From assembly GCA_026195275.1 (NCBI GenBank), contig JAPHQU010000002.1, forward strand, positions 69,964 through 133,963: 64,000 nt of DNA. Reading direction: 5' to 3'. Shown one piece after another: positions 1 through 56,619 of the stretch. A model generated the notes under the pieces. It saw nothing but the letters and a program-made list of their open reading frames with translations. It did not search any database and was not told the DNA's origin. The stretch comes from Minisyncoccota bacterium (lineage in GTDB: Bacteria > Patescibacteriota > Minisyncoccia > Phycocordibacterales > JABMNX01). The position numbers and the translations under genes were made by a program. Positions within the stretch are counted from its first letter, which is position 1. Every line of letters starts with the position of its first letter.

Positions 1-1266
1 TATGTGTTCTCTCGCGCCGGGGTGGGGGTGCCGCGTATCGCTATTGATCAGTACGTATGTGGCGAGGAGGTGGCTGAAGACGACCTAAAGCCGGGGGACG
101 TAGTTTTCTCTATTGGGAAGGATACAGAAGCACGAGAGTCGTTCAAGCGAGTTGCAGACGGTGCTGAGGTAACCGTACAAGCTGTTAAGTATCAGACCAT
201 TGAATACATGCCGGGTACTGCGGTTGTAAGTGGGGTGAGTCACTGTGGTATCTACCTCGGCGATGGGAAGGTGATCCATGCGGCGGGGAAGAGTAGCGAC
301 AATCAAGTGGTGGTCAATGATATTGCTCATGATGTGAATTTTGCAAATATTGTGGGGTATCGCCGCATGGTGGATACCGCTCCGCGTTTCGTTGTTGCGG
401 TGCCATTTGAGCGGCTTGATCTTAGAATCAAAGAAGATCTTATTGAGGAAATCGGCCGTGTGTATGGGTATGAGAATGTCTCTGAGATACCTGTGGAGAA
501 AGAGAAACAGAAGGTCTCAGTAAATAAGAATTTTTATTATGCAGAGAAGATACGCGACCTCCTCACCACAAAAGGGTTTGCTGAGGTATATACATATTCA
601 ATGGGTGAGTCTGGCGACATTGAGATTGAGAACCCGATTGCCGAAGATAAAAAGTTCCTCCGCACATCGCTTGTTGGCGGGCTTTCCGGTTCTCTTGGAC
701 TCAACACCAAGAACGCACCGCTTTTTGGTGGGGGAGATGTGCGCATCTTTGAAATCGGCAAAGTTTTTTCGGACGACATCGAGTACACTTCGCTTGGTAT
801 TGCATCCTCAAACAGCAAGAATGTTCTTGAGGTGCTGACAGACCTCTCAGGCGAACTTGAGCAAAAGATCGAGGCGTCTGAAAGTAATAAAGAGTTGTTT
901 GTGTGCAACCTCGATATGCTAGTTGCAAATCTTCCTGAGCCGAAGGAGTACGATGTCTCAGTCGAGCAAAAGCAGGTTGTGTACAGACCATTCTCGAGCT
1001 ATCCGTTTGCACTTCGCGACATTGCGGTGTGGGTGCCGGAGAAGGTGACAGCCGATGATCTTCTTGAGGAGATTGTGTCTGTTGCAGGAGACCTGCTCGT
1101 ACAAAGCTCACTCTTTGATGAGTTTTCGAAAGACGGAAGAGTCTCGTATGCTTACCGGCTCGTCCTTCAATCACCCGAGAGAACCCTCTCTGATGAAGAT
1201 ATTGATGCGGTCATGAATCGTGTGACCGTGCAACTAAGCAACAAAGAAGGATTCGAAGTTCGGTAA
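1..1266 (+). CDS. pheT: Phenylalanyl-tRNA synthetase beta subunit, C-terminal portion (5' end lies outside window)
   Basis: ORF open to the window edge. It has a B5-like GDVRIFEIGKVF segment. The C-terminal FDX-ACB-like segment FDEFSKDGRVSYAYRLVLQSPERTLSDEDID matches the PheT anticodon-binding domain. Confidence 0.75.
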   Translation, partial: YVFSRAGVGVPRIAIDQYVCGEEVAEDDLKPGDVVFSIGKDTEARESFKRVADGAEVTVQAVKYQTIEYMPGTAVVSGVSHCGIYLGDGKVIHAAGKSSDNQVVVNDIAHDVNFANIVGYRRMVDTAPRFVVAVPFERLDLRIKEDLIEEIGRVYGYENVSEIPVEKEKQKVSVNKNFYYAEKIRDLLTTKGFAEVYTYSMGESGDIEIENPIAEDKKFLRTSLVGGLSGSLGLNTKNAPLFGGGDVRIFEIGKVFSDDIEYTSLGIASSNSKNVLEVLTDLSGELEQKIEASESNKELFVCNLDMLVANLPEPKEYDVSVEQKQVVYRPFSSYPFALRDIAVWVPEKVTADDLLEEIVSVAGDLLVQSSLFDEFSKDGRVSYAYRLVLQSPERTLSDEDIDAVMNRVTVQLSNKEGFEVR

Positions 1267-1406: not shown

Positions 1407-3536
1407 ATGGAGCTCTATTTGGGGCGACCATATTTATTTATGGCTGAGAGAAAAGCAAAAGAGACCACCGAAAAAAAGACCGCAACCCCCAAAGGTGCCA
1501 AGACTGCGGGGAAATATGGTGCAGAGGAGATCACGGTCCTTGAGGGGCTTGAGGCGGTGCGCCGTCGCCCGGGAATGTATATCGGCACGACCGGCCCGGA
1601 AGGGCTCCATCATCTCGTATGGGAGGTGTTTGATAACTCACGCGATGAAGCGATGGGCGGCTTTGCAGACCGTATTGAAGTAGCGCTTTTGCCCGAGGGC
1701 AGGGTGCGTGTTGCTGACAATGGTCGCGGTATCCCGGTCGACATTCACTCGAAGACAAAAGTCTCGGCGCTTGAGACGATCATGACAACACTTCACGCCG
1801 GCGGTAAGTTTGGCGGTGAAGGTTATAAGGTCTCCGGCGGACTCCACGGTGTGGGTGTCTCCGTGGTGAACGCACTCTCAAGGTATGTGAAGGCGGTTGT
1901 GCACCGCGATGGCGGTATGTACATGCAGGAGTACACCAAGGGTGGCAAAGCAAAGGCGAAAGTAAAGAAAGTAAGAGCGTCAAAACTCACCGGAACCGTG
2001 ATCACCTTTGAGGCTGACCCGGAAATCTTTACTGAGATTGCCTACGATTGGAATAAGATCGTCTCACATCTTCGCCAACAGGCGTACCTGGTCAAAGGTC
2101 TTTCTATTGCCATCCTCGACTTGCGTGAGTACACAGGAGGGGTCGAGGATGAAGCCGGTCTTTATCTCCGCGACCTCGGTCTTGAGTGTCCGTCGATGTC
2201 ATTTTACTTTGAAGGTGGACTCCTTTCGTTGGTGAAATTCCAGAACCGCCACCAGAAGTCGGTTCATAAGAATATCTTTTATGTTGAAAAAGAGGCGGAT
2301 GATGTTGGGGTCGAGATCTCGCTCCAGTACGTTGACGATATCTCAGCACGCATCTCAGCATTTGCAAACAATATCTATAATCCAGAACACGGGACACACA
2401 TCACCGGCTTCAAGACGGCACTCACGCGCACACTCAACAACTACAGCAAGAAGGCTGGCGGCAAGGAGGGCGAAGCATTCACCGGAGACGATGTGCTTGA
2501 AGGTATCACGGTAGTGGTATCGGTTAAGATGCCGGAGATCCAGTTTGAAGGGCAGACCAAAGGCAAGCTTGGGTCTGTTGAAGCACGCGGAGCTGTCGAG
2601 AGTGTCTTTAGCGAAGCGTTCAGCACTTTCCTCGAAGAACATCCTGAGGACGCTAAGATGATCATCGGTAAGGCGACGCTCGCGCTTAAGGCTCGCAAGG
2701 CAGCAAAAGCAGCCAAGGACAGTGTACTTCGCAAGGGAGCGCTCGAAGGGCTCACGCTCCCCGGAAAGCTCGCTGATTGTTCTACAAGGAATGCTGATGA
2801 GTCCGAGCTCTTCATTGTGGAGGGAGACTCTGCAGGAGGCTCCTCAAAACAGGGACGCGACCGGCGCACACAGGCGATCCTCCCACTTCGTGGCAAGATT
2901 CTCAATGTTGAGCGCGCACGTCTCGACCGCATGCTTGCCTCGAACGAGATTAAATCACTCGTGGTTGCGCTTGGTACTGCGATTGGAGATACATTTGATA
3001 TTGAAAAGCTTCGCTACCACAAGATCATCATCGCAACCGATGCTGATGTGGACGGAGCGCACATTCGCACACTCCTTCTCACACTCTTCTATCGCTACTT
3101 CAAGCCGATCATTGAGGGTGGGTACCTCTACATCGCGCAACCACCGCTGTATAAGATTAAGAAAGGGCGCGAGGTGTCCTACGCGTACACAGAAGATGAT
3201 AAGATAAAAATCCTTGGGAAAGATGCCGAGGTGATTGAAGAGACACCGGAGGGAGCAACTGATGTGGAGGAAGACGCAGAGGAAGCGGAAACAGGCGAGG
3301 CGAAAGCAAAGAGTTCAAAGAAGGTTCATATCCAGCGTTACAAAGGTCTTGGTGAGATGAACCCTGAGGAACTCTGGGAGACGACTATGGACCCTGAGCA
3401 CCGTGTACTCAAGCAGGTTACCATTGAGGATGTGCAAGAAGCCGATCGCATCTTTGACACACTTATGGGTACTGATGTGGCGTCACGCAAGACATTCATC
3501 CAATCGAACGCGAAGTACGCACAGTTGGATATTTAA
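1407..3536 (+). CDS. gyrB: DNA gyrase subunit B
   Basis: LEGLEAVRRRPGMYIG ATPase N-terminus, TOPRIM region, EGDSAGG and C-terminal QRYKGLGEMNPE motifs. There is a K/T-rich N-terminal extension of about 30 aa, and an alternative start at 1440 (MAERKAKE). Confidence 0.95.
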   Translation: MELYLGRPYLFMAERKAKETTEKKTATPKGAKTAGKYGAEEITVLEGLEAVRRRPGMYIGTTGPEGLHHLVWEVFDNSRDEAMGGFADRIEVALLPEGRVRVADNGRGIPVDIHSKTKVSALETIMTTLHAGGKFGGEGYKVSGGLHGVGVSVVNALSRYVKAVVHRDGGMYMQEYTKGGKAKAKVKKVRASKLTGTVITFEADPEIFTEIAYDWNKIVSHLRQQAYLVKGLSIAILDLREYTGGVEDEAGLYLRDLGLECPSMSFYFEGGLLSLVKFQNRHQKSVHKNIFYVEKEADDVGVEISLQYVDDISARISAFANNIYNPEHGTHITGFKTALTRTLNNYSKKAGGKEGEAFTGDDVLEGITVVVSVKMPEIQFEGQTKGKLGSVEARGAVESVFSEAFSTFLEEHPEDAKMIIGKATLALKARKAAKAAKDSVLRKGALEGLTLPGKLADCSTRNADESELFIVEGDSAGGSSKQGRDRRTQAILPLRGKILNVERARLDRMLASNEIKSLVVALGTAIGDTFDIEKLRYHKIIIATDADVDGAHIRTLLLTLFYRYFKPIIEGGYLYIAQPPLYKIKKGREVSYAYTEDDKIKILGKDAEVIEETPEGATDVEEDAEEAETGEAKAKSSKKVHIQRYKGLGEMNPEELWETTMDPEHRVLKQVTIEDVQEADRIFDTLMGTDVASRKTFIQSNAKYAQLDI

Positions 3537-3609: not shown

Positions 3610-4629
3610 TTACTCGGTCGTTACCGTGATAGGGAACTGTTTGATGTTGTTCTCTTCGTTGCGTTCCTTCATGCTTCCGGTTGGGTCTGCATTAATGGTG
3701 ATTGCGCCACCATGAACTGCAAGGTCGATTTGGTTGAATTCAAGTGTGAAGACAATTTTGTCTCCGGGGTTGAGTGCTTGCTGGCTTTCTGAATGGAAAA
3801 TATACATTGGCATAGTTGGAAGCACTGCGTTGAATGTCCACTGGTCTGAAGTCTTGTCGCCAATGTTTTTGATTTCGAAGCGGATTGCCGCTTTCGTGTC
3901 TGTTGCGGTGAGGGTGTCGATTGGAGTGAATGTGCCATCATTCTCAACAATACCGATACCGATGATATGTACCGCGAGATCAGGGAGTCCTGATGGGTTT
4001 GAGATAGTGCCTCCGTTGGTGATCTCGTAGGTCCCTGTGGTTTCCTCTCCCGGAGTGAGTGTATTGCCGCCAGCGGTGTTTCCTCCCGTTGGCGCGCCTA
4101 GACCGCTTTTTGAGATAGTAAGGGTCACTGAGCCGCTCGCTGCGGTATCACCGGATGTGTCCACCGCATTGATGGTTACAGGAACACTCACAAAGTCACT
4201 CCCTTCAAGGAGGGGGATTATAAGGAGCGTGCCTTCGGTGCTTGAGAATGCAAATGGTGTATCACACACGACCTCCTCGTAGATACCGCCGGTGTTTGGA
4301 CTCTGTATCGAGAGTCCGTCACGACACGTAAAGGACGCCGTGTATGCGTCTGATTGTTTATTGCGGTGGCTCCATGAGAGCTCATACACACTGTCTGTTG
4401 GCACGATAGATTCCGGTGTATCGATGGTAATGGTCTGTGCCGGCGCGAAAACCGAAGTAAGAGAAGTGGCGACTGCGGCAAGGGAAGAGAGCACTGACGG
4501 CGCAAGGCGCGCGATCTGAACTGAGCCCCAGAGTCCGACTGAGAGGATGGCGATAAAACCAATAATAGCGAGTGCTTTCACACCGAGCTGCTGTAATTCT
4601 GCTTTTGGAAAATTTTTCATGTGCACCAA
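3610..4629 (-). CDS. Membrane-anchored extracellular protein (N-terminal signal anchor, Thr/Gly-rich, CARDB-like beta-rich domain), function unknown
   Basis: 339-aa ORF with N-terminal TM helix ALAIIGFIAILSVGLWGSV. Composition is typical of a cell-surface protein. It lies next to the sortase gene. Confidence 0.55.
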   Translation of the reverse strand: MVHMKNFPKAELQQLGVKALAIIGFIAILSVGLWGSVQIARLAPSVLSSLAAVATSLTSVFAPAQTITIDTPESIVPTDSVYELSWSHRNKQSDAYTASFTCRDGLSIQSPNTGGIYEEVVCDTPFAFSSTEGTLLIIPLLEGSDFVSVPVTINAVDTSGDTAASGSVTLTISKSGLGAPTGGNTAGGNTLTPGEETTGTYEITNGGTISNPSGLPDLAVHIIGIGIVENDGTFTPIDTLTATDTKAAIRFEIKNIGDKTSDQWTFNAVLPTMPMYIFHSESQQALNPGDKIVFTLEFNQIDLAVHGGAITINADPTGSMKERNEENNIKQFPITVTTE

Positions 4630-4746
4630 TATGTATCACAACTCGGCTGCTGTGTCAAGTTTTCTCAGGAGGAGGGAGTCTTTCAGAGAGCATGGATTTC
4701 TTGACAATACTGCATATTTGGTGTATAAAGGCTCAGAGCATCTTAT

Positions 4747-5391
4747 ATGAAAGACCAAGGAATAAAAGGGCACACAGGTTCTCTCGTTACCGCCATTGTG
4801 GCGGTGCGGTGGCGTTTTCTCTTTCTCTTTGTCTTTATGTTTGGTATGACGCTCTTCTTGCTTTCAATGGTTGGGCTTGTCCCCGAGAGGATCACAGAGC
4901 GAGAGCCTGCAGGCACTGAGGTTGCGTATGCTTCTCGTGAGTACGCGGGGGACCCTAAGCGGATCCTCATCCCTTCAGTCGGAGTGGATGCTAATATTGA
5001 AAATCCACAGAGCCGCGAGATCGAGGCACTTGATCGTGCCCTCAAGGAAGGAGTGGTACGATATCCCGGCACCGGAGTGCTTACCGAAAATGCAAATATT
5101 TTTCTTTTCGGACACTCCAGCTACTTGCCGAGCGTCATCAACAAGAACTATCAGGTATTCAACAATCTACAGAAGCTTGGTGCGGGGGATGAGATCTTTG
5201 TTGATTCGGGGGATATGCGATATGTATACCGCGTCACATCGGTTGTGCTTGATGAAGCGGGAAATGTTGTTGTTGACTTCAGTCGTGGAGAGCGGATGCT
5301 CACACTTGCGACCTGTAACTCTTTTGGAGAGAAAGACGAGCGATACGTTGTCCGCGCAAAGTACGTAGGAAGCTACCTGCTTACGATCTAG
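4747..5391 (+). CDS. Sortase family transpeptidase
   Basis: N-terminal TM anchor followed by sortase-like H (LFGHSSY), LTLATCNSFG (TLxTC) and R (VVRAKYVG) motifs in the canonical His-Cys-Arg order. Confidence 0.8.
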   Translation: MKDQGIKGHTGSLVTAIVAVRWRFLFLFVFMFGMTLFLLSMVGLVPERITEREPAGTEVAYASREYAGDPKRILIPSVGVDANIENPQSREIEALDRALKEGVVRYPGTGVLTENANIFLFGHSSYLPSVINKNYQVFNNLQKLGAGDEIFVDSGDMRYVYRVTSVVLDEAGNVVVDFSRGERMLTLATCNSFGEKDERYVVRAKYVGSYLLTI

Positions 5392-5522
5392 GTCGTACGC
5401 AGATAGCTCTCTAAGTAGAGAGTGTTTGTTCTTTTATAATCCAGTTCACATTCTTCACGTCTCTCTCGCATTCTCGGGAGATCAGACTTCAACGTTCAAG
5501 AGAAAAGGAAAGGAGAGCAACC

Positions 5523-6728
5523 ATGCTCAGAAATATCAGTGTTGTCGTAGTCGCTACGTTGGCGATTGCGGCGTGTGCGGTCCCCGTGAGGGTCGTCAAC
5601 ACCGAGCAGGAGTCGGTGCCGACCAAAGAGGTCTCACTACAGGAATCTATTCCTGTGGTCAGGGCTCCTTCTGGACCGGTGAAAGTCCGCCCGAAAGAGT
5701 GGTCTCTTCCCGGTATGACTTGGATTGGCGATGGATTCTCCTGCCCCACATCGGCCGTACAGGGCGAGCGTCTGCGCAAGTGGGCACGCCCCGGCGCACA
5801 CCCATACGCCGGCACTCTCGGCCAGGCAATCGGGCTCTTCCGGGATGTTCCCAAAGAGGTTCGTGCCTCCTGGCAGGAGGACTTCAAGATGAACAAGCTC
5901 ACGACACGCCCGCTTTCTGAAGGCGAGCGTTTCTGCGGTATGTTCTACACCATCGACGGCAAGAAAGGTCCCTACCATAGGGTCTGGCCGAATGTCAGGA
6001 CTGGTGCGTGGGTCAACGAACCAAACGCCAACAACGGCGCTCGGGTCGTTACTGCCACCTATGGCGGCTACGAATGGGATCTTGTGATCCCGGACATCTG
6101 CGACAACGTCTCATACGTTGCTCGTAAGATGCCGACACCAGTCCCGCACAATACGCAGAGCGTCAAGCAGTCGGTATCTCCTATGCCGATACCGCTGGCT
6201 AAGCTGGCAGAAGATCCGTTCTTCATTCGGGTCAACTACTGGGAGTGGGATTCAATCCCTGAAGACCTTCAGAAGAAGATCATGAAGATCGTGGAATATG
6301 AAGGCAACGAGACGTACGCCGAAGAAGACGGCGCCGTCTCAAGGGACTTGTACGATGATTTGGTCGCGTCATGGAAAGAAGGTGGCGCAACCACGGTTAC
6401 CGTCCCCACCTCGGCGTCGATCAGCTATCCGGGCAGCAACGGCGTGGAGAGCATCCTCTCGAAGCAGGGTGACCACGCTAAGTTCTCGGACCTTGTGTAC
6501 TGGGAGAAGTACATCAGTCGTTCGCTTGCGTCAGAGCTCGAGAGTCAGGTTTTACTCTCGAGAGTCTCTGCAGAAGGGTGTACGGTAGTGTATCCCACTG
6601 AAAAGATGGAATACACCATCAGCACCCGACTGAACACGAAACCTAAAGCTCCCGGGGAACTTGCCTTATTGGCAAGGAATCCTAAGGAAGTAGGTGCGAA
6701 CATGAACGTCGTACTGGATTGCCCGTAA
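5523..6728 (+). CDS. Putative secreted lipoprotein, function unknown
   Basis: Signal peptide with a lipobox-like AIAAC. The 401-aa ORF lies in the surface-protein cluster. Confidence 0.55.
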   Translation: MLRNISVVVVATLAIAACAVPVRVVNTEQESVPTKEVSLQESIPVVRAPSGPVKVRPKEWSLPGMTWIGDGFSCPTSAVQGERLRKWARPGAHPYAGTLGQAIGLFRDVPKEVRASWQEDFKMNKLTTRPLSEGERFCGMFYTIDGKKGPYHRVWPNVRTGAWVNEPNANNGARVVTATYGGYEWDLVIPDICDNVSYVARKMPTPVPHNTQSVKQSVSPMPIPLAKLAEDPFFIRVNYWEWDSIPEDLQKKIMKIVEYEGNETYAEEDGAVSRDLYDDLVASWKEGGATTVTVPTSASISYPGSNGVESILSKQGDHAKFSDLVYWEKYISRSLASELESQVLLSRVSAEGCTVVYPTEKMEYTISTRLNTKPKAPGELALLARNPKEVGANMNVVLDCP

Positions 6729-6799
6729 GGGCTACTCAACTTGGTGTGGGAGTAGAGATGCGCTATAGTGCACCCTACCTCCCATACCTTTTTATACTT

Positions 6800-8554
6800 A
6801 TGAAAAATCAACTCACAGAAAAGACATCAACAATGAACACAACGCTTATGCAGGCGATTCTTTTCTGTATTTTTTTACTTTCACTTTTTGCCTTTGCGCT
6901 CAATATCACATTTGAGGGGCATCAGGTACAGGTAGGCCCAACACAGGTACTTGCTTTTGGTAGTGGCGCTGGAGCAGGTGGTGGTGGCGGCGCAGGTGGT
7001 GGTGGCGGCGCAGGTGGTGGTGGCGGCGACTCTGCTGGTGGTAGTGGATTTGGGAGCGGTTCAGGCTCTGGTAACGGAAACTCCTCAGATTCAGGATTTG
7101 GGGGTGGTTCGGGAGCGGGGAATGGTAACCCGGGTGATCCTGGAGATGAGGGAGGTGGTACTCCGTCAAACCCGCCCCAGAATCCACCAACGCCGGATCC
7201 AACCCCGTCCTGTTCACTTTCTGTCGACAAGAGCACACTTACCCTTGGCGGATCTGCGTCACTCTCATGGTCTTCGAGTAATGTATCAAGTGGGTCTATC
7301 GACCAGGGAGTCGGCACTGTTTCAACTTCCGGAAGCACAAATGTTTCGCCGGAAAGCTCGGTGACCTATACCGGCACCTTTACCGGGCAGTATGGCTCTG
7401 CAACATGTTCAGTGTCGGTACAGGTTTCAACAACACCAGACCCGGAAGCACCATCGTGTTCTCTCTCGGTCGGAAAGAGTGTGCTTGCAAAAGGGGAGTC
7501 GACCACACTTTCGTGGACTTCAGTCAATACAATCGAAGGTTCGATTGACCAGAGCATTGGATCAGTTGACACTTCAGGAAGCACGAGTGTTACACCGGAC
7601 AGCAACACAACATACACCGGTACGTTCACCGGGCAAGATGGTTCGGTACAGTGTCGTGCCTCAGTCGAGGTCACAACAACCCCGCCACCAGGATGTACGG
7701 TCAATTGTGGCGGAGGAATCGACCCGCCGACAGTCTCGCTCAACTCACTTAAAGGACCGGGGGAGAACCCACTCGCATTTATTACCCTCAGCCAGATCCC
7801 GTACACCGGATTTGACGCCGGACCAATCGCAACCGCACTCTACTGGCTCGTACTTATACTCTGGAGTGCCTTTCTTGCATACGCAATCATTACCTACAAC
7901 ATCGGGGCACGACTCTTCTCTTCAATCGGCGCAATTCTTGGAGGCGGTCGGACCTCTGCCCCTGCAGAGCGCGCGCAAGCCAACCGGTCTTTCTATGCTC
8001 ATGAAATAGCAGATGACGCGACGGCAGAAGGGGTGCATGGTGACGAGCTCACCCTTGAGATTGATGGTGGTGTGCCACGGATTATCCTGAAGCGGGTGGT
8101 GGCTGAGAAGACCCCCACAGCTTTTCTCAATGAGGGACATGAGCAGCAGAACAACTCGCACCAGACCGCGTATATTAAGACAGATACTACCGACAGACTT
8201 CCTGTAGCTGGCACGCATACAGCAGTGCTTCTCCAGGCGATTGCCCGAGGAGACAGCGCGCGTGCACTTCGTGTGATTCAAGAGCATCGTAAAGAAGGTA
8301 AGGATGTGACCACTACACTTGTCTCGCTTGTGTGTGAGCTCGATCGACTTCACTGTGTCCGTTGTGATGAGAAGACATCTGAGATGGTTGACCCGGCCAC
8401 AGCAGAGCGTTTCCACTCTTGGAGTGCGTACGATATTGAGCAGGCAATTCACATCCTCACCGAAGGGATTGATCGCAACCGCATCTCTCCGGCAACCGGT
8501 GCCAAAGTTGCCATTCTCCGGGTACTTGAATATTCCAGCAACCGTCACAACTAA
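6800..8554 (+). CDS. Large cell-surface protein: signal peptide, Gly/Ser-rich low-complexity region, Pro-rich linker, two tandem ~85-aa Cys-containing Ig-like repeats, IPYTG motif, TM helix, ~190-aa cytoplasmic domain
   Basis: The ORF runs 6719..8554 and the likely start is 6800 (MKNQLTEK) or 6833 (MNTTLMQ). The repeats PSCSLSV[D/G]KS...TYTGTFTGQ.GS..C..SV.V.TTP occur twice. A TM helix IATALYWLVLILWSAFLAYAII follows IPYTGFDAG. Confidence 0.65.
   Translation: MKNQLTEKTSTMNTTLMQAILFCIFLLSLFAFALNITFEGHQVQVGPTQVLAFGSGAGAGGGGGAGGGGGAGGGGGDSAGGSGFGSGSGSGNGNSSDSGFGGGSGAGNGNPGDPGDEGGGTPSNPPQNPPTPDPTPSCSLSVDKSTLTLGGSASLSWSSSNVSSGSIDQGVGTVSTSGSTNVSPESSVTYTGTFTGQYGSATCSVSVQVSTTPDPEAPSCSLSVGKSVLAKGESTTLSWTSVNTIEGSIDQSIGSVDTSGSTSVTPDSNTTYTGTFTGQDGSVQCRASVEVTTTPPPGCTVNCGGGIDPPTVSLNSLKGPGENPLAFITLSQIPYTGFDAGPIATALYWLVLILWSAFLAYAIITYNIGARLFSSIGAILGGGRTSAPAERAQANRSFYAHEIADDATAEGVHGDELTLEIDGGVPRIILKRVVAEKTPTAFLNEGHEQQNNSHQTAYIKTDTTDRLPVAGTHTAVLLQAIARGDSARALRVIQEHRKEGKDVTTTLVSLVCELDRLHCVRCDEKTSEMVDPATAERFHSWSAYDIEQAIHILTEGIDRNRISPATGAKVAILRVLEYSSNRHN
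6974..7027 (+). repeat. Perfect 3 x 18-bp tandem repeat (gcaggtggtggtggcggc) encoding (AGGGGG)3 inside the surface protein gene
   Basis: Counted directly: three identical 18-nt units. Confidence 0.9.
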
Positions 8555-8757: not shown

Positions 8758-10506
8758 TTACTCTGGGTTGATCTCGGCTTTGAGGCGTGCTGTTAGATCT
8801 TCAACACTCATACTCCCCACCTTGCCTTCGTCGCGACTCTCAAGCGTGACCTCTTTTTTATCGACTTCTTGCTCACCAATGACGAGGAAGTATGGAACCT
8901 TCTCAAGCTTTGTATTGCGGATCTTTTTGCCGAGTGATTCAGATGAATCATCGAGTTCAAGTCGAATACCGCTTGCTTTCAGTTGTTCAGCAACCTCCTT
9001 TGCGTACGCGGTGTGGTTCTCGCTGATGGGGAGTATCTTTATCTGCACCGGTGAGAGCCAAAGCGGGAAGGCTCCGGCAAAATGCTCGATCATGATTGCC
9101 ATGAAGCGCTCAAGCGAGCCGGCAATGGCGCGGTGGATCATGACGGGCGTCTTTTTTTCGCCGTTCTCATCAACATATGAAAGTGTAAAGCGCTCCGGCA
9201 TGACAAAGTCGAGTTGTGCGGTTGCGAGTTGACGCTCTCTACCAAGTGCGTCAAAGAACATAAAGTCGAGTTTTGGTCCGTAGAACGCCGCCTCACCCTC
9301 GACACGTTTGTAGGGAAGGTCGAGTTGCTTCGCGATATCCTCAAGTACACTTTCTGCTTTGTCCCATCCCGCAGCATCACCGAGATACTTCTCAGGTTCA
9401 TCTGGGTCGCGGACTGAAAGCGAAACCCAGAACTTTCCTTCTTGGAACATGTCGAGACTCGTATAGAATTCTTTGATAACGTGGACGATATTCTCAACCT
9501 CTTGTCTGATTTGCTCAAACGTACAGAACACATGACCGTCATCCTGCGTGATACTGCGTACGCGTGAAAGCCCGAGGAGCTCGCCTTGTTGTTCGTCACG
9601 ATAGACCATGGTGGTCTCAGCGAAGCGGAGTGGCAGTTCTTTGTATGAGCGCGGGCGACTGTCGAATATCTGGGTGTGGTGCGGACAGTTCATTGGCTTC
9701 ATAACAAACTCAGTGTCGCTCTTGCCTCGTACTTTGAAGAGCTCATCGCCAAACTTGTCCCAGTGTCCGGAGGTTTTGTACAGGTCGCTCTTAGTGATGT
9801 GTGGGATTGATACCTTGGTGTAACCGAAACGTTCTTGAATTGACATGATCTTATCAACGATCAGGTCGCGCATAAGGGTACCGCGCGGTGTAAAGAGGGG
9901 GAGACCAGGGCCGACCAGGTCTGAGAAGGTAAAGAGGTCAAGCTCCTTGCCGAGTTTGCGGTGGTCGCGTGCTTTCGCTTCTTCTTGTTGTGCGAGGTAC
10001 GCATCAAGTGCTTCTTTGTTTTCAAACGCGAGTCCGTAGATACGTGTGAGCATGGGGTTTTTCTCGTCACCGCGCCAGTATGCTCCCGCTACGTGAGAGA
10101 GTGCGAAGCTCTCCAGGTCGACTTCGCTCGATGAAGCAACGTGCGGACCCTCACAAAGGTCGACAAATTCACCGATTGTATAGGTGGTGATGTTCTCTCC
10201 TTCTTTTGCAATCCCTTCGATAAGCTCGAGTTTGTACGGTTGGTCCTTGAATAGCTCGCGCGCTTCATCAACTGATACTTCCTGACACTCCGGCTCGAAT
10301 CCCTTCTTGAGGATCTTGTGCATTTCCTTCTCAAAGCTCTTGAGGTCGCCCTCGCCGGGAATCTTTCCCTTGGAGAATTCAAAATCATAATAAAAACCGT
10401 TCTCAATTGCAGGACCAATGGCAATCTTTACCTTGGGGTCGTGTGTTAAGACGGCTGCAGCGAGCACGTGGGCAAGAGTATGGCGGACGCTCTGTAGGTC
10501 TTTCAT
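8758..10506 (-). CDS. thrS: Threonyl-tRNA synthetase (lacks N-terminal TGS domain; starts at N2/editing domain)
   Basis: HRKLGKELDLF, FRVRGKSDTEFVMKPMNCPHHTQIF, class II motifs and a C-terminal anticodon-binding domain. The N-terminus aligns with the ThrRS N2 domain (RHTLAHVLAAAV). Confidence 0.93.
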   Translation of the reverse strand: MKDLQSVRHTLAHVLAAAVLTHDPKVKIAIGPAIENGFYYDFEFSKGKIPGEGDLKSFEKEMHKILKKGFEPECQEVSVDEARELFKDQPYKLELIEGIAKEGENITTYTIGEFVDLCEGPHVASSSEVDLESFALSHVAGAYWRGDEKNPMLTRIYGLAFENKEALDAYLAQQEEAKARDHRKLGKELDLFTFSDLVGPGLPLFTPRGTLMRDLIVDKIMSIQERFGYTKVSIPHITKSDLYKTSGHWDKFGDELFKVRGKSDTEFVMKPMNCPHHTQIFDSRPRSYKELPLRFAETTMVYRDEQQGELLGLSRVRSITQDDGHVFCTFEQIRQEVENIVHVIKEFYTSLDMFQEGKFWVSLSVRDPDEPEKYLGDAAGWDKAESVLEDIAKQLDLPYKRVEGEAAFYGPKLDFMFFDALGRERQLATAQLDFVMPERFTLSYVDENGEKKTPVMIHRAIAGSLERFMAIMIEHFAGAFPLWLSPVQIKILPISENHTAYAKEVAEQLKASGIRLELDDSSESLGKKIRNTKLEKVPYFLVIGEQEVDKKEVTLESRDEGKVGSMSVEDLTARLKAEINPE

Positions 10507-36287: not shown

Positions 36288-37010
36288 TTATTGGATAGGC
36301 ACTGCGGGTATACTCTGTGCCCCTGAGTCATCGAGGAGAGTCTCGATGACGCGGCGCATGACTTCGATTGGCTGCGCTCCTTCAATCGGCGCTTGTTGAT
36401 CGCCAACAATGACCACATTGTGTGGGGTACCACGACCGCCGGCAGCAACCACCTCTTCATACTGTCTCTGGACCTTTTCGCGGTACCGACCACTCTCAAG
36501 ACATTCATTGAATGCACCTTCATCAAGCCCTACTGATGTGGCAATCTCGGGGAGTTTGGTGAGATCAAATTGGTTATTTCCGGGGGTCGTACGGTAGAGC
36601 TCATCCGCGAAGTCCCAGAACGCTTGGTTGCCGCCGAGTTCTGCCGCACACTCAGACGCTTCTGCCTGTGTGACCGCCTTAGGGTGGCGAGAGACGATCG
36701 GGAAGTGTCGATAGACCCAGGCGACCTCTCCGCCAGTACCGTATTCGTTCATGATTGCGTGCATGGTTGAGTGAAAATTCTTACAAAACGGACACTCAAA
36801 ATCAGAATATTCAACAATCACCACTTTCGCATCCGGGTTGCCTAAGATGTGGTCGTCGGCCGAGACAGCAGGGACGGCAACCGTCCCTCGTTCTGTGTCG
36901 CCGGTTGATGTGTCGCTCGGCTGGTTTACCATGTAGAGCGCTCCGGCTATGATAAGACCCGCGATTACTATTGCGGCGGGTATAGTATATTTCTTGTCCT
37001 CCATATTCAT
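36288..37010 (-). CDS. DsbA-like thiol:disulfide oxidoreductase (thioredoxin fold, membrane-anchored)
   Basis: N-terminal TM helix, a CPFC active site (EYSDFECPFCKNFH) and a length of 240 aa. Confidence 0.8.
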   Translation of the reverse strand: MNMEDKKYTIPAAIVIAGLIIAGALYMVNQPSDTSTGDTERGTVAVPAVSADDHILGNPDAKVVIVEYSDFECPFCKNFHSTMHAIMNEYGTGGEVAWVYRHFPIVSRHPKAVTQAEASECAAELGGNQAFWDFADELYRTTPGNNQFDLTKLPEIATSVGLDEGAFNECLESGRYREKVQRQYEEVVAAGGRGTPHNVVIVGDQQAPIEGAQPIEVMRRVIETLLDDSGAQSIPAVPIQ

Positions 37011-37055: not shown

Positions 37056-37853
37056 ATGGATTTTACCTCAGCAATTATCCTCGGCGCAGTACAAGGAATC
37101 ACGGAATTCCTTCCCATTTCTTCTTCGGGGCACCTTATTCTCGCGAGAGAGGCGCTCGGGCTTGAGACATTTTATGGTCTCTCCATAGACGCGGTGCTCC
37201 AATTAGCTACCTCGCTGGCCATTCTGCTTTACTTTTGGCGGGATTTCTGGAAGATGGCAGTATCCGGGTTCAATTGGTTGCGTGGTCGGGTTATTCCGAC
37301 AGAGGAGCGCATTCTTATCATTGCGCTCGTTGTTGGAACGATACCCGCAATCATCTTTGGGCTTTTGCTTGAGGGCATGATGGAGACAACCTTTCGGAGC
37401 GCTGAGCTTGTCGCGTGGACACTTATCCTCGGCGCCGTATTCTTTTTTGTAGCAGAACGACTCGCGAAACAGTCGCGTACACTCAATGTGAAGCGTGGGT
37501 TCTGGATTGGTATGTTCCAAGTGCTCGCACTCATTCCCGGCATGTCCCGTTCAGGCTCAACCATTGCGGGAGGACTCCTCCTTGGTCTTTCGCGCACAGA
37601 CGCTGCACACTTTGGCTTTATGCTTGGTTTTCCAATCATTTTCGGTTCTGGGATGAAAAAACTTCTTGAGTTGGGTGGAAATGGTGGAATCCTCTCAATC
37701 GGTTGGCCGCTTGCTGTCGGTGCAGCAACCGCATTTATTGTCGGTGTCCTTGCGATGCATCTGATGATGCGTTATCTCAAGAACCACACACTTGATGTGT
37801 TCGTAATATACCGCATAGCACTTGCGGTACTCGTATTGTATTTTGTTGCCTAA
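37056..37853 (+). CDS. uppP: Undecaprenyl-diphosphatase
   Basis: GITEFLPISSSGHL and SRSG.TI motifs in a polytopic membrane protein. Confidence 0.9.
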   Translation: MDFTSAIILGAVQGITEFLPISSSGHLILAREALGLETFYGLSIDAVLQLATSLAILLYFWRDFWKMAVSGFNWLRGRVIPTEERILIIALVVGTIPAIIFGLLLEGMMETTFRSAELVAWTLILGAVFFFVAERLAKQSRTLNVKRGFWIGMFQVLALIPGMSRSGSTIAGGLLLGLSRTDAAHFGFMLGFPIIFGSGMKKLLELGGNGGILSIGWPLAVGAATAFIVGVLAMHLMMRYLKNHTLDVFVIYRIALAVLVLYFVA

Positions 37854-42222: not shown

Positions 42223-43035
42223 TCATATGAACCGATTTGGTACTCGAAGCTCTTCAACAAGAAGCATATCACTTTGGTGGTTTGCAAACTGCGGACTTAT
42301 GATCCTTCCGGCCAGACGCGTTCCTTTTGGGGTAACACACAGTAACGCCCCAAGAAGGTCGAGCAAGCGGTGTGTCGCGATCTCCTCAAGTTTCTCTTGA
42401 GACGATATGCCTTCATTCTGTTCAAACCACACGAACTGGTCTTTGCGACCGAAGATCTGACTGAGTACCTTAAGTACTGGTCTGCCGTACGGTCTTGCAT
42501 GTGATAATGCAGCAATGTCGATTTGATCGAGATCTCCTTCAAGGATGCTTTCCCCGATACTTTCGTAATTGACCACGATCCTGTAGACAAGGGTCCTGGT
42601 TTGATTGGTCTCTTCGCTCGGATGGATCTCCAACGATCGCCCGCTGCAGACCGGTATCTCGATCATCGTGGTGGGCGTGACGCAGGAGAACACACCACTG
42701 CGTTTCAATTGCGGCCCGATCATTTTGTGAAAGAGAACCGCACAGCCGTCATAGGGAAGTCGGGAAGCGCTGATGCGCACCCCGTCAACACCTGCTGCGT
42801 AAAGATACCCTAGCAGATGCTCAGGCACATAGAGCTCCGCCTTTTTGTGTGACAGTTTGAGGCAGTGTAGGTATGGATGCGCAGTGATGCACACCTTATC
42901 AAGGGGTACATCCGTGCCGTCCGCATTCCAGTAGATCCCCGGAGCGCCAATCGGGCTCAAGACGACTCGCGCCGTTTTCCCGAAAGCATCACGCCCGTTT
43001 ATCTCCACCTCCTTTAAGAGTGTGTTGCGGATCAT
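42223..43035 (-). CDS. lpxC: UDP-3-O-acyl-N-acetylglucosamine deacetylase (LpxC) family zinc deacetylase
   Basis: By-eye alignment to E. coli LpxC. The N-terminus matches: [26 protein letters not shown] against [44 protein letters not shown] corresponds to TVEHLNAALAGLGIDNIVI (E78/H79). [10 protein letters not shown] corresponds to HKMLDAIGDL (H238/D242). NH near the C-terminus corresponds to H265. Confidence 0.6.
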   Translation of the reverse strand: [270 protein letters not shown]

Positions 43036-43372
43036 CGAAGACTCCTTTCTTTGTTCTTGTGATATTGATATCTCACCAATGTATAGCACACCGAGCAGTT
43101 GTTGTCATGCCCTGCGCGATATGCGTGCTCGGAGACTTGCCTATGACCTTGGGTTACATACAAAATTCAAAATTGAGTAAAAATGGTGTAAAAATAAAAA
43201 GAAGAGACCACCCCCAATTGACGAGGGTGGTTTGAAGCATCATAAGGTCTCTTGAGGATGTTAGTCGTCGTGGTCGGTGCCGACTTCTAGAGAAAGGATA
43301 CTTTATACACACGCTCATTATGTACTCGTGCCTCTGGTTTGTTAATATGAGATGTATAACCGAAGATTCAAT

Positions 43373-48344: not shown

Positions 48345-49910
48345 ATGAAAAAAGCCACAAAATCAACCAAAAAGAAAACAGAAAGTGCTGGACGATTTGA
48401 GGCACAACTTTTCAAAGCGGCAGACAAACTCCGAAAGAACATAGACGCGGCTGAGTACAAACACGTTGTACTCGGTCTTATTTTTCTGAAGTTCATATCA
48501 GACGCATTTGATGTGCACTACCAGAAACTTGCCTCGGGTAAGGGTGAATATGAGGGTGCCAACCCAGAGGATCAAGACGAATACAAAGCAGAAAACGTAT
48601 TTTGGGTACCGCCAGAAGCGCGGTGGGCACACCTTCATTCACGCGCAAAGTTGCCGAGTATCGGTAAGGATTTGGACGCGGCAATGGAGGCGATTGAGCG
48701 AGCCAACCCGACACTCAAGGGTATCCTCCCGAAAGAGTACGCAAAACCAAACTTGGACAAGGTAGCACTCGGTGGTTTGGTAGACCTTATTGCAGACGTT
48801 GCACTCGGCGAGGAAAGCGAAAAATCAAAAGACCTTATTGGACGTGTGTATGAGTACTTTCTCGGCGAGTTCGCTTCGCTTGAAGGCAAGAAGGGCGGGC
48901 AATTCTACACTCCTAGAAGCATTGTTGAACTTATGGTGCAAATGATAGAGCCAATGACGGGACGTGTGTACGACCCTGCGTGTGGTTCGGGTGGAATGTT
49001 TGTGATGAGCGAGAAGTTTGTGCTCGCACATCGCGGGCGTTTGGAAGACATTTCTATTTACGGACAAGAGAGCAACCACACCACCTACCGCCTTTGCCGT
49101 ATGAACCTCGCGCTTCGCGGAATAGATGGCTCGCAAGTGAAATGGAATAGCGAAGGGTCATTTCTCAAAGACGCACACCCTGACCTCAAAGCGGATTACA
49201 TTTTGGCAAATCCGCCTTTCAACCAAAACGACTGGGGCTGGGACATTCTCAGAAACGACGCTCGTTGGAAGTACGGTTTGCCGCCAGAAGGCAACGCAAA
49301 CTATGCGTGGCTTCAACATATGATCCACCACCTTTCTCCAAAAGGTGTAATGGCAACGGTACTTTCAAATGGTTCGCTTTCCTCCAACCAAGGTGGCGAA
49401 GGAGAACTGCGAAAGAAACTTGTGGAGGAGGATATGGTGGACTGTATCGTTGCGCTTCCAAACCAACTTTTCTACAACACAGGCATTCCTGCTTGTTTGT
49501 GGTTTATCTCACGTAAGCGCATTGGCAACGGCGACAGGAAACGCACAGGAGAAGTGCTATTTATAGACGCGTCGCAAATGGGGGCGCTGGTAGACCGAAC
49601 GCACAGAGAGTTTACCGAGGAGGACATCAAAAAGATTGCGGGCACGTATCACGAGTGGCGACAGAAAAACAACAAGTACAAGGACATCAAGGGCTTCTGC
49701 AAATCATCATCACTCGCGGAGATACAAAAGAACGGCTACGTGCTCACGGCAGGGCGCTATGTGGGTATTGCAGATGGCGCGAAAGACAGCGAGCCGTTTG
49801 AGGAGAAAATGACGCGGCTCACCAGTACCCTCAAGGAGCAAATGGAGCAGGAGCAGACCTTGAACGAGGAAATAAAGAAGCAACTGAAAAAAGTTGGATT
49901 TGAACTATGA
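48345..49910 (+). CDS. hsdM: Type I restriction-modification system methyltransferase subunit
   Basis: N-terminal LFKAADKLRKNIDAAEYKHVVLGLIFLKFISD, motif I DPACGSGGM and motif IV NPPFN. Confidence 0.92.
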   Translation: MKKATKSTKKKTESAGRFEAQLFKAADKLRKNIDAAEYKHVVLGLIFLKFISDAFDVHYQKLASGKGEYEGANPEDQDEYKAENVFWVPPEARWAHLHSRAKLPSIGKDLDAAMEAIERANPTLKGILPKEYAKPNLDKVALGGLVDLIADVALGEESEKSKDLIGRVYEYFLGEFASLEGKKGGQFYTPRSIVELMVQMIEPMTGRVYDPACGSGGMFVMSEKFVLAHRGRLEDISIYGQESNHTTYRLCRMNLALRGIDGSQVKWNSEGSFLKDAHPDLKADYILANPPFNQNDWGWDILRNDARWKYGLPPEGNANYAWLQHMIHHLSPKGVMATVLSNGSLSSNQGGEGELRKKLVEEDMVDCIVALPNQLFYNTGIPACLWFISRKRIGNGDRKRTGEVLFIDASQMGALVDRTHREFTEEDIKKIAGTYHEWRQKNNKYKDIKGFCKSSSLAEIQKNGYVLTAGRYVGIADGAKDSEPFEEKMTRLTSTLKEQMEQEQTLNEEIKKQLKKVGFEL

Positions 49911-50938
49911 GCGAAAAAATAACAACAGAAAATGTATTTGAGGTAGATGTTCCAGCATTGGCACTGGACAGCCGCTTTGGCAGTTTGGTATTTGAAAACG
50001 CCAACAAAAAACTCGGTAAGGCGCAAGCGTTTCTGAAAGAAGTGTACGATCTTGGCTATCAAGAACTTCTCAACGAAAGTGGTATAAATCAGGTTGGAAA
50101 TCTAACCAACAAACTGACGGAGCATTTGGAATGGCTTCGCAACTTTGATATTGGTACAGTTGCAAACGCAAAGCAGGAGCACGACAACTTTGAAAGTCGT
50201 ATTGACGGCTTCTATAACGATATTTACGAGCAGATACTGATGAGAACGCTCCCGTTCCTCCGAGAGGAGCGCCGTCGCGAAAACCCTGACCAAAAACAGT
50301 TGGATGAGGAGGTAAAGAAAGCAGTACAGGTACGCACTGAGCTTGAGGATGAACTAAAAGCAATACGCGAGGAAACTCAAAAAATCCGCACTGCAAATAA
50401 ACAAGTTGGTTCCGCTAAGGGTCAGAGGGCGGCAGTACAAATGGCGGCACACTTTGATGATGAAGTAGAACGCTATGCAACTCTCTCAAAGTATTGGCTT
50501 TGGGGCGTTGTAGGCGGATATGTCGCTATTGTTGCAGTTCTTGTTTGGCTCGGGTTTGTTACCGCCTCATATGTACATCAAATCGTCTCTTTGCCCGACA
50601 CCGTGGACACGAGTGGTATCTGGAGCGCTGTGATCTCAAAACTCGTTATCTTGGCGGCGCTATGGTATGGCTTATCGTTCGTTATCAAAAACTACAACGT
50701 GAACTCTCATTTGGCGGCAGTAAACCGACACCGCGCCGCAGTGGCACGAACTCTGGAGGACTTCATAGCGGTAGAACAACAGCAGGAAAATCCGCGCTTG
50801 TCGGAAGTGCTACAGCACGCTTCCGAAGCAATGTTCAAGAATGTGCCGATTGGTTTCGTCTCTAAGACAGAACGCGAACAAAGCAATCCCGTGCTTCAGA
50901 TAGTGAATGACCTGATCGGGATAAAGAACAACACATAG
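49907..50938 (+). CDS. Embedded gene X1: coiled-coil N-terminal domain plus 2-TM membrane protein, function unknown
   Basis: 343 aa. The start overlaps the hsdM stop (ATGA). TM helices are WLWGVVGGYVAIVAVLVWLGFV and SAVISKLVILAALWYGLSFVI. No motif recognised. Confidence 0.6.
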   Translation: MSEKITTENVFEVDVPALALDSRFGSLVFENANKKLGKAQAFLKEVYDLGYQELLNESGINQVGNLTNKLTEHLEWLRNFDIGTVANAKQEHDNFESRIDGFYNDIYEQILMRTLPFLREERRRENPDQKQLDEEVKKAVQVRTELEDELKAIREETQKIRTANKQVGSAKGQRAAVQMAAHFDDEVERYATLSKYWLWGVVGGYVAIVAVLVWLGFVTASYVHQIVSLPDTVDTSGIWSAVISKLVILAALWYGLSFVIKNYNVNSHLAAVNRHRAAVARTLEDFIAVEQQQENPRLSEVLQHASEAMFKNVPIGFVSKTEREQSNPVLQIVNDLIGIKNNT

Positions 50939-50941
50939 TAT

Positions 50942-51535
50942 ATGGAAATCGTTTATATTCTCACCAACCAAGCAATGCCCGACTACGTGAAGGTTGGGCG
51001 CACCAAAGACCTCCAGCAAAGGTTGAAAAGTTTGTATCGCACACCCGTGCCACTTCCTTTTGAGGTGTTCTATGCGTGCACTGTTGAGAACTCTATGGAA
51101 GTAGAGGCGTGGCTGTTTGAGATTTTTGACGATAGGCGGGTGAGCAAAGAGCGAGAGTTTTTTGAGATAGCGCCAGAGCGCGTTGCCGCGGCATTGCGTG
51201 CACGAGCGGTGCAGGAGGTAACCCCGAAGCAGACGTACACAGAGAACAAAGAGGACGAGGTGGCACTGGAAAAGGCACGCTCAAAACGCGACAAGTTCAA
51301 CTTCGCAATGGTGGGTATTCCTGCTGGTGCTGAACTTACCTTCAGTAGAGACGAGAATATAAGGGCGCGGGTAGTAGACAACCACAACATTGAATACAAC
51401 GGCAAGGTAACGAGTTTGTCTACCTCGGCACAGGAAATACTTGGCTACAACTATGGAGTGGCGGGCACGTTGTATTGGTCGTATGAAGGCGAAACTCTCC
51501 ACGCGCGGCGCGTGCGAATGGAGGAAGGAGAATGA
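50942..51535 (+). CDS. Embedded gene X2: T5orf172 (GIY-YIG-like) + DUF4357-like domain protein
   Basis: N-terminus IVYILTNQAMPDYVKVGRT...REFFE is T5orf172-like. The C-terminal part KFNFAMVGIPAGAELTF...SLSTSAQEILGY...WSYEG is DUF4357-like. This family is commonly found inside type I R-M loci. Confidence 0.65.
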   Translation: MEIVYILTNQAMPDYVKVGRTKDLQQRLKSLYRTPVPLPFEVFYACTVENSMEVEAWLFEIFDDRRVSKEREFFEIAPERVAAALRARAVQEVTPKQTYTENKEDEVALEKARSKRDKFNFAMVGIPAGAELTFSRDENIRARVVDNHNIEYNGKVTSLSTSAQEILGYNYGVAGTLYWSYEGETLHARRVRMEEGE

Positions 51536-52797: not shown

Positions 52798-52801
52798 ACA
52801 T

Positions 52802-53458
52802 ATGGAAAGCACAGTAGAAAAAATCACCGATACAGTATCCGACGCATTCAGAAGCATAGCCGAGATTGCAAAGGAGCGAATATTTACGCCAATGTATTTC
52901 TACTTCCTTGGTGCGTGGCTCATTACCAACTGGAAGTTTGTGTACACATTCTTTTTTGCTGATGAAAAACTGATACTTGAACACACTGGAATGTTGAAAG
53001 TTGAGTATCTGACGCAAATCTATCCTCACGACTGGACGGCGGTATTTCCGTTATTTGTTATACCGTTCGGGCTCGCGTATTTGGCAGTTTGGTGGTTCTC
53101 TGTCGTTTCCGAGAGGTTTTATAAAAAACACGAGGAGCACCAAATGAATAAGCGTGTGATCAAGCGCGAAGTTGAGTACCGCGAGAAGGTGGCATATTTC
53201 AAATCAGAGCGTGAAGTACGCGAGCAACAACTTGATCCGCAGGTGAAGTATGAGGAGAACAGGGACTACAACGAGCAAATAGACGAGAGCAATCCAGAGG
53301 TGGAAGTGAATGGAGTGCCTATGTTGCCAAGCGAAGTTTTGTATAAAACGGATTACCTTGCATATAAAACAGGGCTAGACGAATATACAGCAGAACTCGC
53401 ACAGAAGGGCGAGGATTTGGCAGTTCAGGCAGAAATAGACCGCCGACGCGGAAAATGA
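52802..53458 (+). CDS. Embedded gene X3: 2-TM membrane protein with charged C-terminal tail, function unknown
   Basis: 218 aa. Helices are [22 protein letters not shown] and [22 protein letters not shown]. Its stop overlaps the hsdR start (ATGA). Confidence 0.55.
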
Positions 53459-56400: not shown

Positions 56401-56613
56401 GAGACACTTCGCGATCTTGCGCGAGTGCTGGTAGACAGGGTACGGGCGAGTGCCACGGTGGACTGGACGATACGCGAGAACGTAAAAGCAAAGTTGCGCG
56501 TCTTGGTAAAACGTACGCTCGCCAAGTACGGCTATCCACCAGACAAGCAGGCAATCGCTACGGAAACCGTGCTCAAACAGGCGGAACTTTTCGCTGATGA
56601 TTGGGCGAAATAA
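53455..56613 (+). CDS. hsdR: Type I restriction enzyme endonuclease/helicase subunit
   Basis: N-terminal nuclease domain, SF2 motifs ([16 protein letters not shown]) and a length of 1052 aa. Confidence 0.92.
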
Positions 56614-56619
56614 AGTTTT

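Follow-up and report, generated by a model that had tools for sequence, protein, structure and literature searches.

What does the sortase encoded between gyrB and thrS in a Minisyncoccota bacterium act upon? The locus lies within a 64,000-nucleotide (nt) stretch of that genome (GenBank assembly GCA_026195275.1, contig JAPHQU010000002.1, positions 69,964 to 133,963 of the forward strand), which is the window of this report and to which the coordinates refer unless a locus is named. Four genes are found between gyrB and thrS: a CARDB-domain membrane protein on the minus strand, followed on the plus strand by the sortase, a lipoprotein-like gene and a large surface protein, called here the PYTG protein, in which the string IPYTG stands just outside a transmembrane (TM) helix. 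The original prediction, made from the letters of the window, had placed the sortase among three exported neighbours, none of which ends in a canonical LPXTG terminus; both points hold, the neighbours being the CARDB membrane protein, the lipoprotein-like protein and the large surface protein. Our analysis makes it probable that the sortase and the PYTG protein are a dedicated enzyme-substrate pair with an extended sorting signal, LSQ[IV]PYTG. The features that this reading depends upon are listed below; residue numbers of the PYTG protein refer to the listed open reading frame (ORF) of 611 amino acids (aa).

4747..5391, plus strand: sortase, 214 aa, with an N-terminal TM anchor
5113-5115, plus strand: catalytic His123, in FGHSS
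5314-5316, plus strand: catalytic Cys190, in TLATC
5341-5343, plus strand: catalytic Arg199, in RYVVRAK
6800..8554, plus strand: PYTG surface protein, 584 aa from the likely ATG at 6800 (listed ORF 6719-8554, 611 aa)
6854..6901, plus strand: N-terminal hydrophobic segment AILFCIFLLSLFAFAL, a signal peptide or signal anchor
~6953-7204, plus strand: Gly/Ser/Pro-rich low-complexity stalk, preceding the repeats
7205..7702, plus strand: two immunoglobulin (Ig)-like repeats of ~85 aa with two Cys each (PSCSLSV.KS...YTGTFTGQ.GS..C)
7787..7810, plus strand: extended motif L357-S-Q-I-P-Y-T363-G364, with IPYTG at nt 7796-7810
7805-7810, plus strand: predicted scissile bond T363-G364, within IPYTG
7823..7894, plus strand: TM helix, aa 369-392 (helix at segment residues 34-57 of the structure model), with Arg398 after the helix

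The sortase and the extended motif

The identity of the enzyme is clear from its sequence matches and its modelled fold. It matched PF04203 of Pfam at E=3e-21 (75.9 bits versus a cut-off of 26.6) and TIGR01076 of NCBIfam at 39.8 versus a cut-off of 39.35, and the predicted His/Cys/Arg triad with its TLxTC motif was borne out: H123, C190 and R199 are invariant in a set of 39 homologues with 36-62% identity to the window sortase (alignment A5), and they align with the catalytic residues of 4d70. The AlphaFold 2 (AF2) model, with a mean predicted local distance difference test (pLDDT) score of 87.7, has a sortase barrel behind an N-terminal TM helix at residues 21-42. Foldseek with this model returned 132 PDB matches at E<=1e-3, and the 50 that were listed are all sortases (50/50); class A, C, D and E enzymes were matched about equally (E ~1e-10 to 1e-11, 20-28% identity). 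The best PDB matches by sequence were C. perfringens SrtD and B. anthracis SrtA. The window sortase is 100% identical to the sequence P0002, named 'MAG: sortase [Candidatus Pacebacteria]'.

The motif of the putative substrate belongs to a large family. An exhaustive HMMER search among representatives of 50%-identity clusters, with the C-terminal 276 aa of the PYTG protein as query, found the module composed of LSQ[IV]PYTG, TM helix and C-terminal helical domain in 834 representatives at E<=1e-3 and in 243 at E<=1e-10, with most matches covering two stretches, namely the motif with the TM region and the last ~110 aa. Family members are 280-1500 aa long, and their N-terminal parts (~0 to 1,100 aa) vary while the module stays conserved. 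The signature reads aFvyLSQ[IV]PYTG[FL]xxGPxxTxx[YF]W...WS...AY. Among 216 distinct sites, collected with a pattern that prescribed P, T, G and the L before them, Q is present in 94%, I or V in 95%, Y in 99% and the G at +8 in 91%; alignment A2, which was unconstrained, likewise has L, P, T and G without exception. Within the TM helix the same sites have T in 81%, [YF]W in 87-96% (W in 87%), S in 79%, A in 81% and Y in 92%. No Pfam or NCBIfam model covers the C-terminal module, its homologues in a protein database search (at least 25) are all named 'hypothetical protein', and a PDB sequence search with the module profile gave noise only. Full-text literature searches on PYTG, or on sortase signals of the Candidate Phyla Radiation (CPR)/Patescibacteria, yielded no description of the motif or the module.

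This conservation refutes the simplest alternative, that IPYTG beside a TM helix is a chance string without function, and we give that view practically no credence. Such a pentapeptide is expected about once or twice per 64 kb, and the long ORFs of the window do contain two [LIVM]PxTG strings, the other being VPTTG in an unrelated helicase ORF; only IPYTG is followed by a TM helix, however, the motif is near-invariant in the 216 sites and 834 representative clusters, and it always stands in the same place with respect to TM helix and sortase gene. In the window protein the helix begins 5 residues past G364 and is modelled at a pLDDT of 87-97, which agrees with the placement of IPYTG directly before a TM helix in the original prediction; the motif stretch itself is predicted to be unstructured (pLDDT 54-60). 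At the other end of the chain, a hydrophobic N-terminal segment was found in the window protein and in 54/63 complete orthologous ORFs. The Ig-like region gave weak, sub-threshold Pfam matches to Big_12 and Ig_ADGRF3 at aa 242-321.

That IPYTG might be a non-canonical signal had been one suggestion, a description that does not really apply, for IPQTG of S. pneumoniae RrgB and VPDTG of RrgC are established pilin sorting signals (PMC5640630). The PYTG signal shares with LPXTG and [IV]PxTG pilin signals the invariant P, T and G, the placement of the motif outside the hydrophobic helix and the basic residues that follow it; and, as in the [IV]PxTG pilin systems, the substrate gene is accompanied by one for a membrane-anchored His/Cys/Arg sortase. 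It differs in being extended and more rigid (LSQ[IV]PYTG[FL]xxGP), in a TM helix with conserved polar and aromatic positions, and in a chain that usually runs on for 250-330 cytoplasmic residues, where LPXTG proteins have a short basic tail. It differs from class C pilin systems in that the sortase fits no NCBIfam class A-F, no pilin motif was noticed by eye and no second sortase is present.

Conserved TM positions of this kind are unusual for LPXTG signals, and their pattern suggests a specific helix-helix contact in the membrane. The TM region of the sortase has a conserved W.FL..F of its own. The two sets of positions hint at TM-TM recognition between substrate and enzyme.

Linkage of the two genes

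We examined the association of enzyme and substrate genes starting from either one. For the substrate-first sample, one genome per GTDB species was scanned with LSQ[IV]PYTG[FL], which gave 319 matches, of which 286 were confirmed; 80 loci were retrieved. By their titles these come from Patescibacteria-type metagenome-assembled genomes (MAGs; Kaiser-, Nomura-, Adler- and Wolfebacteria, Parcubacteria, Paceibacterota) or from unclassified 'bacterium' MAGs, and the label 'uncultured Candidatus Saccharibacteria' carried by some loci is probably generic, since the synteny is the same. With a hidden Markov model (HMM) of the sortase, an enzyme of the same family was found 2-5 kb upstream and on the same strand in every locus with at least ~4 kb of upstream sequence (64 loci), and the loci without a sortase match are all truncated on the upstream side. 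Locus L012, the single apparent exception, has an IS30-like transposase (100-975, minus strand) at the contig edge, directly upstream of the middle gene, in the place where the sortase would be expected; with the contig edge and the transposase at that position, it was rejected as a sortase-less counter-example.

The converse sample took as starting points six homologues of the window sortase (44-67% identity), which led to six distinct loci; a protein with [IV]PYTG and a TM helix is encoded between sortase and thrS in 6/6 of them. No other gene with a sortase-like motif followed by a TM helix was found in ~1.4 Mb of related loci or in the window, and the window encodes one sortase only.

The cassette is flanked as follows.

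1407-3536: gyrB, on the sortase-upstream side of the cassette
8758-10506, minus strand: thrS, downstream of the PYTG gene

The order gyrB, CARDB gene (minus strand), sortase, optional middle gene, PYTG gene and thrS (minus strand) is kept in nearly all loci. Of 68 loci, 47 have a middle ORF (150 aa or more); none was found in the other 21, and in 12 of those the PYTG ORF begins no more than ~130 nt from the sortase on the same strand. The cassette, conserved in Paceibacteria, lies in a core housekeeping neighbourhood (gyrB...thrS-dnaE) and appears to be single-copy and to have been inherited vertically throughout one class of the CPR.

Pairs of a dedicated sortase and a single substrate have been described elsewhere, such as SrtB-IsdC (NPQTN) in staphylococci and the marine proteobacterial TIGR03784 sortase with its own target. 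The present locus resembles them in that one sortase is coupled to one cognate substrate with its own variant motif, and differs in its sortase lineage (17.9 bits versus a cut-off of 158 with the model TIGR03784), its core housekeeping location and the cytoplasmic domain of its substrate.

The cytoplasmic extension and the weighing of the pair

The substrate chain continues well past the TM helix, and its last part is the following.

8213..8548, plus strand: cytoplasmic six-helix C-terminal domain, aa 499-610 (AF2 pLDDT >90)

A long cytoplasmic domain behind the helix had been predicted, and it is present, at ~217 residues where ~190 had been estimated. The AF2 model of the tail, built on a 23-sequence alignment, gives in order the unstructured motif, the TM helix, a disordered linker and the six-helix domain. 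The top 40 Foldseek matches of this domain in the PDB are E. coli clamp-loader gamma/tau, delta and delta' chains, with a superposition over ~113 residues of the collar domain III (rmsd, root-mean-square deviation, ~3 Å; 18% identity; best E=6e-4). The window domain also matched PF12169 below threshold (E=0.004-0.018, 15.2-17.3 bits versus a cut-off of 24.4), a match seen in only 1/23 family members, and it gave a sub-threshold match to NCBIfam PRK05563. The likeness to DnaX gamma/tau, delta and delta' domain III thus consists of the superposed C-terminal bundle of 110 aa and these weak Pfam and NCBIfam matches; the difference is that AAA+ domains I and II are missing, no AAA+ match having been found before the domain, where the TM helix that tethers it and the disordered linker stand instead. 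As modelled, the domain is DnaX-domain-III-like in fold, with homology uncertain, and the name is for the fold only because just the one member in 23 gives a sequence match.

The extension had been called atypical; it is no oddity of one gene but the conserved majority architecture of a large, uncharacterised family, with the C-terminal domain at the extreme C-terminus in 77/84 loci. Three of the seven exceptions (L058, L061, L079) are contig ends that cut the gene, and the other four are genuine short-tail orthologues. L046 ends in ...SQVPYTGFEAGP-TM-KKNESRKNLNVRP and L082 in ...KKKHSQTLSK; judged by their sequences, these two C-termini, each a motif with a TM helix and a Lys-rich tail, are textbook sorting signals of the canonical kind. 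The tails of L027 and L033 are 82 and 91 aa. All four short-tail loci retain the sortase. A frameshift as the source of the short tails was rejected, as no remnant of the C-terminal domain was found in any frame of the four loci.

More distant orthologues have other cytoplasmic elements or a wholly different tail. Optional elements were seen in L085 (8733-9680), L088 (8769-9683), L086 (8904-12392), L058 and P0137-P0150; a segment YP[RT]EDGW[IV]xLN, with or without the C-terminal domain, is among those of distant orthologues, and a terminal 'DDF[IL]xAQI' motif occurs in P0127, P0137, P0205, L027 and L033. Tails that vary or are missing behind a constant motif and TM helix indicate that the cytoplasmic part is modular and dispensable. 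With basic residues following the TM helix, and with a few orthologues that do without the domain, it looks like an add-on to a classical signal, and it is probably not required for recognition.

A second P[FYA]TG string is found in the cytoplasmic domain itself (SPATGAK, window 8480-8510, aa ~588-594). It is also present in P0159, P0162, P0168 and others, many homologues read ...Y.SPFTGVKLALAQAFE, and its Lys is invariant (K261 in alignment A2). As the string lies on the cytoplasmic side, it probably caps a helix and does not serve as a sortase site.

The possible roles of the domain include localisation or oligomerisation of the precursor, control or reporting of sorting, and a function after cleavage. 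One of two options in the original prediction had the domain released by cleavage; however, what follows the cut, G364 up to the C-terminus, includes the TM helix, and for that reason it would stay in the membrane. A role of this remnant may have a distant precedent in S. gordonii, where the 'C-pep' membrane remnant of adhesins is described as signalling after sortase A cleavage (PMC11502775). In both cases a TM-containing remnant would stay in the membrane, where it can have a function of its own; the known C-peps are ~30 aa long and act via a histidine kinase (PMC11502775), whereas the PYTG remnant would be ~250 aa with a folded domain, and no kinase partner is evident.

The argument for a dedicated pair can now be put together. 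The pentapeptide fits known [IV]PxTG sorting signals; the invariant residues P, T and G are those that a sortase reads; the spacing of the motif to the TM helix is classical and basic residues follow the helix; canonical short-tail variants exist; and the sortase gene accompanies the substrate gene. The proposal that IPYTG is a signal read by the adjacent sortase very probably holds, given the conservation, the TM spacing, the linkage found in both directions and the ends of L046 and L082.

Several observations weigh on the other side. The conservation goes beyond that of a normal sorting signal, including LSQ before the pentapeptide, GP after it and the polar and aromatic TM positions, and this surplus could instead mark a structural juxtamembrane element. 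The ~217 residues behind the TM helix of the window protein do not end in a short basic tail; to our knowledge a conserved cytoplasmic extension of 217 aa has no precedent among sortase substrates, and the LPXTG-anchor model TIGR01167 of NCBIfam found no match to the PYTG protein at E<=0.1. The sortase fell below every NCBIfam class A-F cut-off (class E 43.7 versus 160, class D 43.0 versus 165, class C 33.1 versus 160); the enzyme is a real sortase that lies outside the curated classes. Finally, the synteny of nearly all loci takes in the flanking genes as well, gyrB on the upstream and thrS on the downstream side, so that adjacency is partly inherited gene order and alone is no proof of a functional link.

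Several of these observations would be at home in an account in which the PYTG protein is an uncleaved bitopic protein, receptor-like or tether-like, with the motif and TM helix serving a structural or oligomerising purpose, the sortase acting on other substrates and the adjacency being synteny. An intact chain as the functional unit is expected to keep its cytoplasmic domain, as 77/84 loci do, and a TM helix and motif flanks conserved far past the usual, gyrB and thrS that are just as syntenic with the cassette, and the silence of the LPXTG-anchor HMM all fit with it. We nevertheless regard this account as unlikely: what is invariant in the motif is exactly what a sortase reads, the motif region is predicted to be unstructured, the short-tail orthologues resemble textbook sorting signals, the PYTG ORF closely follows the sortase gene in the 12 loci described above, and 1.4 Mb of related loci offered no alternative substrate. 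A dedicated sortase-substrate pair is the reading that we retain.

Neighbouring genes and the proposed sorting reaction

The remaining members of the cassette are as follows.

3610..4620, minus strand: CARDB-domain membrane protein, ATG at 4620 (listed ORF 3610-4629), Thr/Gly-rich, divergent from the sortase
4621..4746: intergenic region between the divergent CARDB and sortase genes, 126 nt, the presumed shared promoter region
5523..6728, plus strand: exported lipoprotein-like protein, 'MID', with lipobox LAIAAC

The CARDB gene matched PF07705 of Pfam at 28.9 bits (cut-off 22.7) over aa 243-330 of its listed ORF. A conserved LAvvGF...W segment marks the N-terminal TM helix of its product, the CARDB domain is C-terminal, and there is no sorting signal; an orthologue in the same position and orientation, with the domain kept, was found in 63 loci.

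MID is an accessory member of the cassette, and the lipobox at the end of its signal peptide marks it as lipoprotein-like. Close orthologues have LSAC or LGAC as the lipobox, and more distant family members lack the Cys. Among the 47 middle ORFs, 34 form one very divergent exported family with a mean column identity of 13%. Pfam and PDB profile searches of this family found no match; residues 86-119 of MID (RKWARPGAHPYAGTLGQAIGLF...) gave a weak, short local match, seen in 4/34 members, to the N-terminus of NF038119, the NCBIfam model named 'MHFG family PEP-CTERM protein'.

The CARDB protein bears on a further possibility, namely that the sortase does cleave the PYTG protein and ligates it to another protein, forming a pilus-like fibre or joining it to a Lys of an envelope protein such as the CARDB protein, and not to peptidoglycan. 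This has some appeal in that [IV]PxTG signals typify the pilins that class C sortases process (PMC5640630), the ectodomain is built of Ig-like repeats, 63 loci keep the CARDB membrane protein, transcribed divergently, and class C structures are among the best fold matches of the enzyme. The fold search, however, did not prefer class C over A, D or E, and the NCBIfam class C model gave 33 bits versus a cut-off of 160; moreover, the cassette and the window have a single sortase, and neither a YPKN-like pilin-motif Lys nor a class C lid motif was noticed by eye. We hold protein-protein ligation to be quite improbable, and return to the dedicated pair with a wall acceptor.

Elsewhere in the window, several genes touch upon the cell envelope. 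A BacA/UppP undecaprenyl-diphosphatase is encoded, which fits with lipid-carrier-dependent wall synthesis that would supply a lipid II acceptor; a DsbA-like thioredoxin-fold gene adjoins the BacA/UppP gene (36288-37010, minus strand, and 37056-37853, plus strand), and this DsbA-like/BacA pair may be relevant to the paired Cys of the Ig-like repeats and to the lipid-carrier cycle. The beta subunit of phenylalanyl-tRNA synthetase, PheT (window 4-1266, plus strand), has an inserted domain of the NlpC/P60 cell-wall hydrolase type (PF00877, 33.6 bits), also found in PheT of L002 (2400-4781) and L003 (4165-6489); PheT of the more distant L085, L086 and L088 is without the insertion and has 639-650 aa versus 774-793 aa. 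An LpxC-like ORF (42223-43089, minus strand) matched PF03331 along the entire model (30.7 bits, cut-off 27); genes of lipid A biosynthesis, lpxC among them, are reported to be missing from the CPR bacteria studied so far (PMC5220378). A Type I restriction-modification system (hsdM 48345-49910, hsdS 51532-52797, hsdR 53455-56613) is followed by a large serine recombinase (57920-59662), and the stretch ~48345-59662, with a guanine-plus-cytosine (GC) fraction of 0.44-0.48 compared to ~0.51 elsewhere in the window, may by its lower GC be an acquired island.

For the sorting reaction we propose the following course, in which the cleavage step, its acceptor and any part played by the cytoplasmic domain are inferred. 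The PYTG protein would be exported via its N-terminal signal or anchor and would display the Gly-rich stalk and the Cys-containing Ig-like repeats outside the cell, the precursor being held by its C-terminal TM helix with LSQ[IV]PYTG on the outer face, 5 residues before the helix. Cys190, with His123 and Arg199, would attack the Thr363-Gly364 bond (predicted target peptide AFITLSQIPYTGFDAG), converting the ectodomain to an acyl-enzyme intermediate, and the ectodomain would then be passed to an amine nucleophile, most likely a peptidoglycan precursor. The stub G364-N611, with TM helix, linker and the 110-aa DnaX-domain-III-like domain, would remain tethered to the membrane.

A more ambitious form of this proposal, which we put forward tentatively and regard as possible but doubtful, is that Paceibacteria have a universal single-copy sortase-gated module: the clamp-loader-collar-like domain would oligomerise a bitopic adhesin precursor or dock it at a defined site in the cell, cleavage at LSQ[IV]PYTG would send the ectodomain to the wall, and the folded remnant would report or regulate display. 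If true, sorting signals that come with an intracellular domain would make up a class of their own, and the C-pep signalling of streptococci would have a much enlarged counterpart; the module might belong to the host-attachment apparatus of episymbionts.

The enzyme family and the type of reaction are already known, and sortases are common in CPR/Patescibacteria (PMC6744442); in the literature searched, no paper was found that defines substrates or motifs of CPR/Patescibacteria sortases. Judged by the databases and papers searched, three things are new: a sorting signal that is both extended and rigid; its coupling, within one core single-copy cassette, to a CPR sortase that has no class assigned; and, in a sortase substrate, a sorting signal that is followed by a conserved folded cytoplasmic domain. 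For a major lineage that is uncultivated, the locus offers a testable enzyme-substrate pair, and its rigid recognition sequence, LSQ[IV]PYTG, could serve as an orthogonal tag for sortase ligation. If cleavage is confirmed, there could be a new kind of coupling between the sorting of surface proteins and the cytoplasm; and the PYTG protein, a fast-evolving ectodomain on a conserved module, is a candidate host-attachment protein of episymbionts.

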